The position numbers were made by a program, and so were the translations under genes. The notes beneath the pieces were generated by a model. It had not been told where the DNA came from, searched no databases, and worked only from the letters and a program-made list of their open reading frames with translations. Positions 9,906 to 46,740 of a DNA stretch of 64,000 nucleotides are shown here, piece by piece. This DNA is from a virus: positions 64,001 to 128,000 of IMG/VR virus record IMGVR_UViG_3300046777_002658. One strand, given 5' to 3'. How positions within the stretch are numbered: position 1 is the first letter of the stretch; every line of letters starts with the position of its first letter.

Positions 9906-9945
9906 TAATATAGAAAAAAAGAATAAAGAGTGTAAACACCACTTT

Positions 9946-10001
9946 GAGAAGCTAGTTTGATATCTTTCACCCCTCAGATATCTGGTGATAACTAGCTTCT
10001 C
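9946..10001 (+). terminator. Long hairpin between two motif copies
   Basis: GAGAAGCTAGTT...AACTAGCTTCTC (12 bp) with an inner GATATCT/AGATATC stem. Confidence 0.6.
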
Positions 10002-10054
10002 TTTCTTTAGAAAAAAAGAAGAGTGTTTGCAATATTCTTTAAAGGTTTCAAATC

Positions 10055-10684
10055 ATGTCTTTATTACAATTGTCTCTAGAAGCTGGTGTTCCAAAATTCT
10101 GTGTTGACCAAATTGCTCAAGGTGATGGTCGCATTACTTTTGAGGCATCTGATTTGGAAATGTTGACCTTTAAGGTCTGGAACGTCTATGAGGACACACC
10201 AGGTCAATTCCAGATGATGGTGACCTTCCAAGGTCATTGTCTTGGTGAGTATGAGTTGCAAAGTCTACCTGAAGACCTTCACACCTTAGAGCAGCAGCCT
10301 GGGTATTTTAAACTATCTGGGTATATCCTGGAAGTTGCGGAAGACGTGCCTGCTGAGGTAGCTGCAGCAATGTCTGCTTTTGCTCAATGGAGCAAAGAAA
10401 ACAAGGGTGTCAAAAACCCTGCTAATCGTCCTCACTTATTTTATAAAGTGGCTAGTGCAGAAGCGTTAATTCAGTTAGTTGTGTGTTCTAGCTATAACAA
10501 GTCTACCAAAGTTAACGAGCTCAGCTTTAACGGCTGGGCTTACCAAGGCCTGGAATGGGCTGGAAACGGAATAGGTAGCATCAAAGCTACCAAGACTGGT
10601 ATAAGTGGTTATACCAGAAAGGTGCTGCCTCCAGCACCTGTAGCTCCCCCAGCTCCCCCAGCTCTTACTCTTAAGTCACGATAG
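10055..10684 (+). CDS. Hypothetical protein (209 aa, Pro-rich C-terminus)
   Basis: ORF after motif copy 10010 with an AAGG RBS. Confidence 0.85.
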   Translation: MSLLQLSLEAGVPKFCVDQIAQGDGRITFEASDLEMLTFKVWNVYEDTPGQFQMMVTFQGHCLGEYELQSLPEDLHTLEQQPGYFKLSGYILEVAEDVPAEVAAAMSAFAQWSKENKGVKNPANRPHLFYKVASAEALIQLVVCSSYNKSTKVNELSFNGWAYQGLEWAGNGIGSIKATKTGISGYTRKVLPPAPVAPPAPPALTLKSR

Positions 10685-10880
10685 GGGGTAATAAACCAAT
10701 TGATCTACTAAAGACCAATTGGTTTATTATTATTTTGTTGTACACAGCCCGGCGGGGACTACAGAGCCTCCAGCGATCGCTCTTTGGACAGGTGACAGAG
10801 AGAAAGGGGTGTACATCTAAATCTTCCTTTCTTAGAAAAAAAGAAGAGGGAATGGAATTATTAGTATTAAAGGAACAATC

Positions 10881-11294
10881 ATGACTAACGTATACTTCTT
10901 CTCCCGCCACGAAGCTCAAGAAGCAATGGTATCTGACTTGGGTGGAACTATCACTCAACAGTTCCGAGGCACAATCTCTAATGTTAAGCGTGTTGGTGAC
11001 GGCATTGAGTTCCAAGAGATTCCATTAGGTGAAACAGCTCCTGTGGTACACACAATTCCTGCCGATTCTATAGTCGTTGCTGTAGCTCCTCTGCCTTTAC
11101 AAGAGGCTTGGCTGAGAGCTGGTGTTTCTGTGTTCCTTGCGCCACAGAACAAGCGCGAGACCACAGAGTCTGGTGAAGTAGTTTTTAACTACGCAGGGCT
11201 GTTACAAGTCCTGAAGATTGAAGTAGTAACCCAACAGTGGGTTGGTACTGCTGTTAGTCTAGAGGACAAGCACGCCGAGCGTAGTGCTTTATAA
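10881..11294 (+). CDS. Hypothetical protein, possibly Csx16/Csx20-like (Crn1-type ring nuclease fold)
   Basis: N-terminal VYFFSRH, central DSIVVAVAPLPL and C-terminal KRETTESGEVVF; AAGGA RBS. Family call is from memory only. Confidence 0.45.
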   Translation: MTNVYFFSRHEAQEAMVSDLGGTITQQFRGTISNVKRVGDGIEFQEIPLGETAPVVHTIPADSIVVAVAPLPLQEAWLRAGVSVFLAPQNKRETTESGEVVFNYAGLLQVLKIEVVTQQWVGTAVSLEDKHAERSAL

Positions 11295-11375
11295 AGAATG
11301 TTGGGAGCGATCGCGCTCTCACTTTCTTTTAAAGAAAAAAAGAATAGTGAGTGGAACTTATTTTTTTAAAAGTAT

Positions 11376-43880: not shown

Positions 43881-44745
43881 CGACAAGCACATCACCATTC
43901 ACAAAGACGGTAAAACCCACTTGATCTCAAAGGATTCAAACTCCTACTTTGACTTTATTAAGAGCACGCTGCTGAAAGCAGGAACAGCAAACACTAATCT
44001 CTTAAGTTGGGGTGGACAAATAAAACAAGCAACTGCTGGAGCTTTTAATTATAACAAGGGAAAGTTCTATTATGAAGATGAACCAGTCCCTAAGTCAGTT
44101 GGTGAGAGAATTAAAGAGTTGGAAGACCAGAATCTTCCTTTTCAACCTTTGATCAACTTTTGGTTAAAGCTCAAAGACCACCCAGATAGAGAAATAAGAG
44201 AAAAATTAGGTCAGTCAGCAGGTAGACCTGGCATACCTTTGACTTGGGATGGAGACTTAATCCTTTACACTCGTGCAAGCTGGGTTCCTCCATCTGCTGA
44301 CAAAGAAGAAATAACCAGTCTAACAAACCTTAATAGGTTTACACGTTTGGACTGGAGTAGTAACAAGTTTACCCCAGGAAAAACAATGGTTTCATCGACA
44401 GCACTAATCTGTGGTGACTTTACCTGGATAACAGAGGTATGCCCTGATGCTGGAGTTATCTATGATATTCAAGTAAACCCTCTTCATGTTGTTAAAAGCA
44501 GCCCATTGGGCGGTAAACTAGAAGTAAGCCAGTTTACCTACCTTTCCCAGCTGGAGGAGCATTCTGCGCTGACTGACAAGATATTCTTTGTTAAAGTAGA
44601 GACTAACACTTTTGGGAAGCAGCTAGTGGTAAGAAAACCCTATTCTCCTGAGTCTCTAAGAGAGTATTTGGCTAATTTGATGCCTGGCACTAATAAAATG
44701 AAAGAGACTGAGAGTCAAACTGTTTCAGTGCGCGGCGGTTGTTAA
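43864..44745 (+). CDS. rIIB: rIIB-like protein (divergent)
   Basis: PLINFWLKL..HP...IPLTWDGDLILY; position after rIIA. Confidence 0.65.
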   Translation: MQYIIDDKHITIHKDGKTHLISKDSNSYFDFIKSTLLKAGTANTNLLSWGGQIKQATAGAFNYNKGKFYYEDEPVPKSVGERIKELEDQNLPFQPLINFWLKLKDHPDREIREKLGQSAGRPGIPLTWDGDLILYTRASWVPPSADKEEITSLTNLNRFTRLDWSSNKFTPGKTMVSSTALICGDFTWITEVCPDAGVIYDIQVNPLHVVKSSPLGGKLEVSQFTYLSQLEEHSALTDKIFFVKVETNTFGKQLVVRKPYSPESLREYLANLMPGTNKMKETESQTVSVRGGC

Positions 44746-44783
44746 TTTAGTTCAAGGGAGTCTTTTGGCTCCCCTAACCAATA

Positions 44784-45509
44784 ATGATTGATTCAAGAGA
44801 ATATACACACCCTAGTTATGGTCTAGTATCATTATCAAGGGTTCAAGCTAACAAATCTAACTGCTTTATGGCAGATGGGCTGGAAGTTGGTGGTTACATA
44901 AAAATGACAGTTAGCACTGCTTTCTTAAGTAGAAAGTTGTCTGGTTATAATCTTTACCCTGATAAGAATATCTTATCCTTAAGGATGTCTTATCACCAGT
45001 TTGCTGAGTTAATTACTAATTTTAACAACGGCTCTGGGACTGCTTGTACTCTTGAGTGGATTACACCTGCTGGTCAAGGAAAGGTTGAAGAGTATGTCTC
45101 TCCTCCCAGCGTTAGGTCAGAGTTTGAGCTTGATCTAAGAAAGCAACTAGACCAAGCTAACAAAATCTTGAAAGAACTTAAAGATAGCATAGCAGAGCTA
45201 GTAAACAAAGGTAAGGCAGGAAAGACAGAGTTAAAACAAGCTTCAGAACTTGTTAACAGAGTTGAGAGACAACTGTTTGACAGCACACCATACATAGAAA
45301 AAAGATTTGGTGAGGCTTTAGATAATGCTACTAGCCGCAGCAAAGCAGAGATTACTGCGTGGATGGATGCCCAACTGTCACGCATGGGTTTAGAGAGTCT
45401 ACGGCAAAAGCAAATAATGTCTGGTTCAAGCCCAGCACCGCTAGAAACAGATAAACCAGCAGGGGACTTAACGTCAGCTATTGGTACTGCTGTAGATTCT
45501 CTTCAATAA
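44784..45509 (+). CDS. Conserved-looking phage hypothetical protein (241 aa)
   Basis: HPSYG...MSYHQFAELITNFNNGSGTACTL plus coiled coil. Confidence 0.8.
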   Translation: MIDSREYTHPSYGLVSLSRVQANKSNCFMADGLEVGGYIKMTVSTAFLSRKLSGYNLYPDKNILSLRMSYHQFAELITNFNNGSGTACTLEWITPAGQGKVEEYVSPPSVRSEFELDLRKQLDQANKILKELKDSIAELVNKGKAGKTELKQASELVNRVERQLFDSTPYIEKRFGEALDNATSRSKAEITAWMDAQLSRMGLESLRQKQIMSGSSPAPLETDKPAGDLTSAIGTAVDSLQ

Positions 45510-45539
45510 CTGCACAGAACAATAGTCACAGGAGAAGAA

Positions 45540-46466
45540 ATGGCATACAAAAGTCAAAGAAGCCAGTTAGTAAACCGTCCGCTTCCTTCTTCATTTTCAG
45601 ATTTTAAAGCAAAGTACCCTACTCTGTTAAGGAAGCTAGTCTATTGGGCTAGTAGAAGGAGCTACAGTCTAAAAGATGCTGTTTTTAAAGAAGTAGTAAC
45701 TTATCTACATGAGTTAGTTATAAATCGCTCCACTGACTTTGCAGAGGCTAAACCTTATCTAGAAATATGGGATAGAACCTTATCTTCTAGAGAAAAGGAA
45801 GAGCTGTGGAAAGTAGTGCCTTATAGATTTCCTAACAAGGAGTTTCTAAAGTACAAAGACGCGCAATTAGAGAGCAGATGGTATACCGGCAGTTACTCTG
45901 TCTTAACAGAAAAGATAACAGATGAATTGTTCTACAAAAGTTCTCTGCAAGGTATTCTCACAGTCAACAGCTATAAAGCGACTATTCTTAACGCCGAAAG
46001 GATGCTGATTGTAGACGTAGATATTGATGGTGATTGTTTAGAATACAACAGAGCTCCAGTAAGTGAAAAGCAAGCTATCATAGCTCTCCGCGCTTGGCAA
46101 TCTCAACAAGGCGGTAACTTCAGAGTTTATAAGACAGCAGGTGGTCTGAGGTACATTGAGACCACTAAAGAGTGGCAGCCTTCAAGTCGTGATACAAAGG
46201 CTGTTATGGCTAACCTATACGCAGATTCTAAATACTCATTACTATGCCAAACCCAAGAAACTTTTAGAGCTAGGTTAACTCCTAAACCTTGGAGGTATGA
46301 AGACTGGGATGTTTACTGTGAAGATGAGCTTGAAGCAGAAGACGTTGGAGTCTGTAAACTCATAGGAGTGGTCGGGGATAAGAAAGTAGATGACAAGTTC
46401 AAAGATTTGATTAAGCTGCACGATAGGAAGACTAAAGCTTTTAGCAAAGACTTAGATTTAGTGTAA
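45540..46466 (+). CDS. Hypothetical protein (308 aa)
   Basis: AGGAG RBS; LIVDVD, VYKTAGGLR, FRARLTPKPWR. Confidence 0.8.
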   Translation: MAYKSQRSQLVNRPLPSSFSDFKAKYPTLLRKLVYWASRRSYSLKDAVFKEVVTYLHELVINRSTDFAEAKPYLEIWDRTLSSREKEELWKVVPYRFPNKEFLKYKDAQLESRWYTGSYSVLTEKITDELFYKSSLQGILTVNSYKATILNAERMLIVDVDIDGDCLEYNRAPVSEKQAIIALRAWQSQQGGNFRVYKTAGGLRYIETTKEWQPSSRDTKAVMANLYADSKYSLLCQTQETFRARLTPKPWRYEDWDVYCEDELEAEDVGVCKLIGVVGDKKVDDKFKDLIKLHDRKTKAFSKDLDLV

Positions 46467-46740
46467 GCTACCAACAGTAGAGAAGAAGCGTCAGAGGAAA
46501 CTGCAGTCGCAAATGCAGGGCAGTAAGTTCTCAGTCATTCTTGGGAGACAAGGGCTCCCAGAGTTTGATAGCCGCAATAACTGTAGCCTGCATGGTCAGT
46601 TTGAAAGTGTTCAGGCTAAAGTTTCGTTTGTGCAAGGTCAAGCAACAATCAAGATTTAGACAATAAGGTAGAGGTTAACAGCCTCTACCAAACTATTCTC
46701 AGCAAGAAAAAAGAATAAAGCAAGAAATAGAAAAGTTGCC

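Follow-up and report, generated by a model that had tools for sequence, protein, structure and literature searches.

A purine-rich 22-nt motif in large cyanophages, candidate promoter of a giant single-chain two-barrel RNA polymerase

Introduction

Which enzyme reads an A-rich motif that recurs on a single strand in front of the small genes of a large phage? The question is raised by a 64,000-nt stretch of viral DNA (the window), bases 64,001-128,000 of a 196,877-bp virus contig (IMG/VR IMGVR_UViG_3300046777_002658), hereafter genome G000. The window opens inside the gene of a giant protein, RNAP-2. The motif, termed class B, follows this gene in many copies. An initial annotation had called it the promoter of the giant phage RNA polymerase. 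This is still the best-supported reading, and the giant open reading frame (ORF) has a two-barrel polymerase fold in the model. The system is wider than had been thought: it comprises two giant candidates, RNAP-1 and RNAP-2, and two motif classes, and replication genes are served as well. Class B is the A-rich 22-nt motif. Class A consists of a terminator tail plus ACAGCC or CAACA. Positions refer to the window unless marked as genome positions.

The HIP1 octamer GCGATCGC occurs 34 times against 1.1 expected. Abundant HIP1 is a pointer to a cyanobacterial host, which is thus indicated here. Homologues of the capsid, portal, sheath, terminase-region and replication genes are present in Microcystis phage Ma-LMM01 in similar order. 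Among cultured phages, blastn and tblastn gave no match to the polymerase region, and the bacterial genomes searched yielded no relative. The motif-bearing relatives were all found via the polymerase. Three near-complete genomes carry class B (G000, G001 and G002). A literature search, which did not cover one older paper on domain architecture, yielded no account of the class-B promoter, nor of any two-barrel polymerase from these cyanophages. New here are the lineage-specific variants, the positional orthology and the copies inside the polymerase gene.

Results

Sequence, number and strand of class B

An iterated weight matrix yielded the 22-nt element aAGAAAAAAGAAYARwGrrtGra with the near-invariant columns A6-G-A, followed by A, G and G. 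Beyond the element, information was present only in a T-rich stretch just upstream. Within the window, 29 sites reach at least 17 bits (range 9,913-46,726), and 20 sites, or 21 including one weaker site, are located within 9.9-23.3 kb. A fourth-order Markov null gave 0.5 sites per 54.5 kb, with a maximum of two. The consensus proposed initially, GAAAAAA(A)GAWWRG, has just ten literal matches in the window and is replaced by the weight-matrix motif. The matrix counts compare with at least 27 copies in all and 22 early ones given with that consensus. Its exclusive location on the plus strand holds for all ten literal matches and for the genome-wide motif scan, in which 47 class-B sites lie on the plus strand and none on the minus strand of the 197-kb genome. 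The matrix was trained on the G000 sites themselves, and the relative G001 therefore serves as independent check. There, 37 sites lie on one strand and one on the other; reversed-pattern controls gave 0 and 1. A search of IMG/VR with an exact 23-nt pattern gave no match.

Placement

Class-B sites precede the ATG by a median of 31 nt (105 cases, six phage sequences). The earlier statement that they usually lie within about 50 nt before a start codon agrees with 22 of 30 sites, for which the distance to an ORF start is 50 nt or less. In the early cluster, 19 of 21 sites abut a T-rich tract that is in most cases the tail of a terminator; among later sites only three of ten do. Terminator-like hairpins are enriched in the early cluster (37 vs 12.3), and sigma-70-like sites are near chance (27 vs 21.3 ± 3.8). 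The motif had been described as unlike a sigma-70 -35/-10 pair, and indeed no hexamer is conserved at a fixed offset around the sites, neither TAnnnT (at most 4 of 48) nor a TTGACA-like sequence (at most 7 of 48).

Beyond the window, class B extends across the replication region; it marks early and replication (middle) genes. It is absent at the heads of the minus-strand structural genes, where a de novo search for a late-promoter motif found none. Four intergenic sites (genome 37301, 80655, 87230 and 131940) sit behind a divergent minus-strand gene. No plus-strand transcript is there to be terminated, which counts for a promoter role.

The polymerase RNAP-2

The 3' part of the RNAP-2 gene codes for an RNase H-like domain (recognized by eye), an AlkB-type 2OG-Fe(II) domain, the two-barrel core, an SLOG-like domain (by eye) and a Dda/Pif1 helicase (Table 1). 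The middle part reads RAP...GDFDGD, with an invariant DxDGD after the R-x-P motif. Both barrels are located in one chain, the first of them has conserved basic residues, and the K/R/K and D/K/D columns are nearly invariant in the alignment. The best PDB match of the core model is QDE-1 (Z 11.8, 462 aligned residues, root-mean-square deviation 6.0), followed by Rpb2/beta chains. The model aligns to QDE-1 across residues 1-1089 and to beta/Rpb2 across residues 1-490. Sequence-profile searches of the PDB detected no relative of RNAP-2 or RNAP-1. The top viral fold match is an uncharacterised protein of MaMV-DC (E 4.5e-14), and 107 relatives were counted among 50%-identity representatives. RNAP-2 is a single-chain two-barrel RNA polymerase by its modelled fold, and its activity is predicted. 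Iyer and Aravind reportedly described in 2012 cyanobacterial polymerases like RNA-dependent RNA polymerases (RdRP-like) that occur as fusions with RNase H, AlkB and SMF domains. In a distant relative (L043:10001-16284), a polymerase (1471 aa) and a helicase (604 aa) are encoded by separate adjacent genes, with a hairpin and GTTTAATGCGGCC repeats on either side.

Motif variants and positions in relatives

In five lineages with polymerases 25-55% identical, the sequence of the A-rich motif changes and its strand is kept. Class B itself is kept at 50-90% polymerase identity, and related variants substitute at 25-30%. The variant of G002, AACAGAGAAGAGTA, occurs 22 times on one strand vs twice on the other (control 0). 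L015 carries GAAACAAAGCA, and L009 and L016 share AACAAAGttAA..TGAA. The variants track the polymerase tree, in which the deep branching order is not resolved.

The positions are conserved as well. G000 and G001 have the motif before 17 shared orthologues of 92 (Fisher p 5e-8). For G000 and G002, the one distant near-complete genome, it precedes five shared orthologues of 58 (Fisher p 1.5e-4), despite the differing motif sequence. An inverted gene block in G002 carries copies on the minus strand. Conservation of position with drift of sequence is what one expects if a protein encoded by the phage reads the site.

Copies inside the RNAP-2 gene

In 10 of 10 loci the RNAP-2 ORF contains the own-lineage variant within its first 2.2 kb, ahead of the core region; cross-matches amount to 0 of 40. 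The internal copies of G000 are located at genome 62,858 and 63,038. In G001, L010 and L015 the internal copies are followed by in-frame ATGs that have Shine-Dalgarno-like tracts. Codon shuffling gave P ≤0.026 in eight loci. These copies may act as a positive-feedback promoter of RNAP-2. In L009, L016 and G002 an extra internal copy occurs about 7-10 kb into the gene, in the linker that leads to the helicase domain, and may be the promoter for a separate helicase product.

RNAP-1 and class A

The second giant, RNAP-1, has portal, capsid and baseplate genes as neighbours. The motifs R-x-G-x-P and G-D-x-D-G-D are invariant in 15 homologues, and the barrel motifs are collinear. A profile-profile comparison of RNAP-1 with RNAP-2 gave no alignment. 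RNAP-1 is a candidate virion-module polymerase, with a putative virion location and a putative activity. A minus-strand protein of 4239 aa at L008:5614-18333 contains PLD-like and M23 peptidase domains and no DxDGD.

Class A, with ACAGCC/ACAGCCG or CAACA after the terminator tail, precedes small genes at L004:2800-6070 (genome 58.8-62.1 kb) and the start of RNAP-2. It is nearly unchanged across relatives and concentrated upstream of RNAP-2. Class B is distributed in the opposite way: the six best-covered sequences and L015 have 0-1 copies within 8 kb upstream of RNAP-2, compared with 8-17 within 8 kb on the downstream side. The two motif classes split the early genes, with class A before the gene of the second polymerase. 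Class A is a candidate promoter of RNAP-1.

Table 1. Positions of the polymerase genes, the class-B sites and the sigma factor gene (window positions unless marked as genome)
Feature	Position	Strand	Remarks
RNAP-1, 3920 aa	genome 41,425-53,187 (L003:3425-15187)		DNDGD loop; tandem PLD-like motifs
RNAP-2, 3' part of 3918-aa gene	1..9826	+	gene start 1.9 kb ahead of the window, at genome 62,070
AlkB-type 2OG-Fe(II) oxygenase domain of RNAP-2	578..1132	+	PF13532, E 1.8e-28
RNA polymerase core of RNAP-2 (fold model of 1131 aa)	3227..6619	+	predicted local distance difference test (pLDDT) 88, predicted template modelling score (pTM) 0.88
Catalytic DFDGD loop of RNAP-2	5537..5551	+	three Asp and Gly unchanged across 13 homologues with identities as low as 22%
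Dda-like SF1B helicase domain of RNAP-2	8351..9772	+	phrog_325, E 1.3e-35
Dense early cluster, 21 class-B copies of 22 nt	9913..23238	+	most directly behind terminator hairpin and T-tract, 13-45 nt before small ORF
Starts of the early-cluster copies	9913, 10010, 10835, 11334, 11639, 11965, 12221, 12611, 13011, 13670, 14326, 15234 (weak), 15468, 16642, 17599, 18180, 19033, 19651, 19754, 20629, 23217	+	
Class-B site at divergent head	16642..16663	+	behind minus-strand ORF
Class-B site at divergent head	23217..23238	+	minus-strand gene 22488-23123 begins just upstream
Class-B site	24084..24105	+	18.7 bits
Class-B site	26221..26242	+	
Class-B site	27565..27586	+	
Class-B site	28087..28108	+	
Class-B site, weak	31623..31644	+	17.4 bits
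Class-B site	33197..33218	+	right after tRNA gene 33114-33187 (Rfam RF00005, 60 bits)
Class-B site	39470..39491	+	
Class-B site	41476..41497	+	ahead of rIIA-like gene
Class-B site	46705..46726	+	last in the range of the initial annotation
Class-B-like site within ORF	49235..49256	+	23.5 bits; past the range of the initial annotation
Phage sigma-70-family factor	53453..54535	+	regions 2, 3 and 4; rival reader of class B

Other features

Two leaders in the early cluster (10818-10885 and 11622-11689) are 82% identical over 68 nt. Each contains a 10-codon mini-ORF ending in an ATGA overlap with the main gene. The pair is probably a copied cassette of promoter and ribosome-binding site. The early ORF at 14369-15196 has a stretch similar to the C-terminal part of ribosomal L7/L12 (PF00542, E 3e-6). 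A radical SAM gene, spore photoproduct lyase-like, is located at 36959-37939 (PF20903, E 6e-20). The palindrome CGAAC-N-GTTCG has 12 genome copies vs 0.1 expected (window 7599, 18995, 32405, 39512 and 51167, and seven more). Ten copies were counted in G001 and none in G002, L015 and L009. It is operator-like and often located within terminator stems; one copy lies just before the RNAP-2 start. A fragment of a Family A DNA polymerase with intein and HNH domain is present at L005:9360-11768.

Discussion

A proposed transcription cascade

Class B is in our judgement probably the promoter of the non-virion RNAP-2, in a cascade like that of Thermus phage P23-45: RNAP-1 would act at class A, RNAP-2 at class B, and the host core enzyme with the phage sigma factor on the structural genes. 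RNAP-1 would enter with the DNA and initiate at class A, before a few small genes (genome 58-62 kb) and the RNAP-2 gene. RNAP-2 would then initiate at class B, initially in the cluster of small ORFs, later at the replication genes. The transcripts would have leaders of about 20-45 nt, cover mostly one gene and be bounded by terminator-promoter joints. From the class-B copies in the 5' part of its gene, RNAP-2 would raise the output of its own core in a positive feedback. The structural genes, which carry neither motif, would probably be read by the host core enzyme and the phage sigma factor. Among leaders whose ribosome-binding tract lies inside the 3' end of the motif, the shortest measure 12 nt in G001 and 15 nt in G000. 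From these we infer that transcription probably starts at or just before the G following the AYAR-W block.

Points against and rival explanations

Several observations weigh against the assignment of class B to RNAP-2. The L014 variant, CAACAAAGGGTAAAG, has three copies only. Kin share labels, so that the variants reproduce the polymerase tree without proof of co-evolution. A class-B-like motif was not found in the farther relatives with an RNAP-2 homologue, Ma-LMM01 and L043, in which a class-A-like element was seen; the generality of class B is limited accordingly. The fold model of RNAP-1 is poor (pLDDT 60, pTM 0.37, barrels below 50), which leaves it a candidate polymerase by motifs only. 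The internal copies sit in K/E-rich low-complexity coding DNA, in five loci synonymous resampling gave P values of just 0.06-0.43, and the pattern for L009/L016 was defined post hoc, after the internal hits had been seen. A sigma-70 factor is encoded in all three near-complete class-B genomes. It diverges about like RNAP-2 (30% vs 27% to G002), and co-variation with the motif therefore cannot tell the two apart. The main rival explanation is that class B is read by the host core RNA polymerase with this sigma factor, or with a different activator of the phage. The motif can be divided into two blocks, A-tract-G and TGRA, and Ma-LMM01, which lacks sigma, shows no visible class B. This alternative is nevertheless unlikely. 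Region 2.3-2.4 of the phage sigma is near-canonical (FSTYAxxWIRQ), and a canonical region 2.3-2.4 reads an xAxxxT -10 box. Class B contains no conserved T, and a -10 box is found at no offset. It forms a single contiguous 22-nt element instead of two boxes 17 nt apart. In every lineage it is linked in cis to the RNAP-2 gene, and the site closest to the sigma operon lies upstream at a distance of about 3 kb. A sigma-70 promoter identity was rejected, as no -10 TAnnnT and -35 hexamers 16-18 nt apart occurred at a fixed offset.

The AT-rich, densely repeated and terminator-abutting motif of P23-45 belongs to the virion enzyme (PMC10770324), and class A (CAACAG/ACAGCC) shares a core with distant class-B variants (CAACAAAG, AACAGAG). 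Both would fit class B as promoter of RNAP-1 instead of RNAP-2, or of both, which we hold to be quite improbable. The RNAP-2 start and the genes upstream are preceded by class A and not by class B, which is what the enzyme that acts first should show. Class B extends across more than 100 kb, replication genes included. The profiles of the two giants fail to align, and RNAP-1 is a candidate polymerase by its motifs only. Very improbable, in our view, is a role other than that of a promoter: a terminator component, a signal for RNA processing or translation, or a joint at which recombination shuffles early-gene cassettes. The T-tract at nearly all early-cluster sites suits such roles, and the two leaders 82% identical indicate that cassettes have been copied. 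The tract is rare at the later sites, however, and the four sites at divergent heads have no terminator function to serve. The motif with 40 nt folds less than random DNA (-4.8 vs -7.8 kcal/mol). A hammerhead (CUGANGA...GAAA core) or other structured RNA was rejected: the core is near one of 48 sites (random 1.6%), and Rfam gave no credible match. The conserved RTG at offset +3 was rejected as leaderless start codon, its frame not being kept between orthologous genes.

Comparison with known systems

T7- and N4-type phage polymerases have a right-hand fold unrelated to the two-barrel fold, and N4 promoters are DNA hairpins. The promoters of T7, T3 and SP6 are one contiguous element of about 22 nt across the start site, differing by phage lineage. 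Class B resembles the T7-type promoters in being contiguous, about 22 nt long and lineage-specific, and it would likewise extend across the start site. It is unstructured, unlike the N4 promoters, and RNAP-2 differs from both T7 and N4 enzymes by its two-barrel fold.

P23-45 encodes the virion RNA polymerase gp96 and the non-virion RNA polymerase gp64; two promoter classes, with promoters abutting terminators, were mapped by cappable-seq and ChIP-seq (PMC10770324). The cyanophage system shares two single-chain DxDGD polymerases (here candidates from sequence), one of them in the virion module, two motif classes, and terminator-abutting promoters in a small early-gene cluster, the first class preceding the gene of the second polymerase. 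Unlike in P23-45, AlkB and helicase domains are fused to the non-virion enzyme, which measures 3918 aa. The candidate promoter is a strongly conserved purine-rich 22-mer, whereas gp64 has a weak, GC-rich one. Further copies are found within the polymerase gene, a sigma-70 factor is also encoded, and the indicated host is cyanobacterial. YonO of Bacillus phage SPbeta (about 100 kDa) transcribes late genes from one start site of undetermined promoter sequence (PMC5467207). Like YonO, RNAP-2 is a single-chain two-barrel DNA-dependent RNA polymerase of the QDE-1-like structural group, here by predicted fold. Unlike YonO, it would read some 47 early and middle promoters.

Ma-LMM01, MaMV-DC and MaMV-DH01 (Fukuivirus) have structural and replication genes in common with this phage, in the same gene order. 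In a profile search of three proteins, Ma-LMM01 gp064 (DADGD) matched RNAP-2 (E 1e-5) and gp080 (DFDGD, PLD) matched RNAP-1 (E 1e-8), at agreeing positions. The protein gp064 is at least 92% conserved in all Fukuivirus isolates compared; it measures just 1673 aa vs 3918 aa of RNAP-2, and Ma-LMM01 encodes no sigma factor. A terminator tail with a TAGTG element occurs five times in Ma-LMM01, only around gp064 (L039:43770-50000 and L040:1-900). The T-rich part of this element resembles the P23-45 virion-polymerase promoter TTATTCCTTTA. Class B in Ma-LMM01 was rejected, since the strand-biased words fall mostly in repeats of a paralogous gene family. Ma-LMM01-type phages have been published as devoid of an RNA polymerase (PMC9927357) and of phage-specific promoter motifs (PMC5780444). 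The early genes of Ma-LMM01 are gp054-063, directly downstream of gp064, and gp064-067 were classed as middle genes (PMC5780444). This middle class is no simple fit with a pre-early role. In Microcoleus phage My-WqHQDG (L044:322-13800), a hypothetical protein of 3411 aa contains DTDGD, and the genes before it share GGGCCTATTATTGTA (five copies of the core); the layout is the same in this other cyanophage record.

Significance

More tentatively, and short of what we would call probable, large cyanophages of this clade might possess a private two-step cascade, in which a giant multidomain two-barrel polymerase reads a lineage-specific 22-nt purine-rich promoter unaided and amplifies itself from copies in its own gene. 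For promoter finding without sigma by single-chain two-barrel polymerases, YonO offers no promoter sequence (PMC5467207), and the P23-45 assignment rests on location (PMC10770324). With 47 aligned sites, and with five lineage variants for each of which a polymerase sequence is at hand, promoter recognition becomes directly testable by enzyme and promoter swaps. Class-B/RNAP-2 pairs could supply phage-type expression systems for cyanobacteria. If the reading is true, at least five natural promoter-polymerase pairs of cellular-type fold would be available. The analysis offers a concrete alternative to the published account of Ma-LMM01 transcription, in a cultured phage that can be tested at the bench. 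If true, it would overturn the published view that Ma-LMM01-like phages depend wholly on host SigA transcription.

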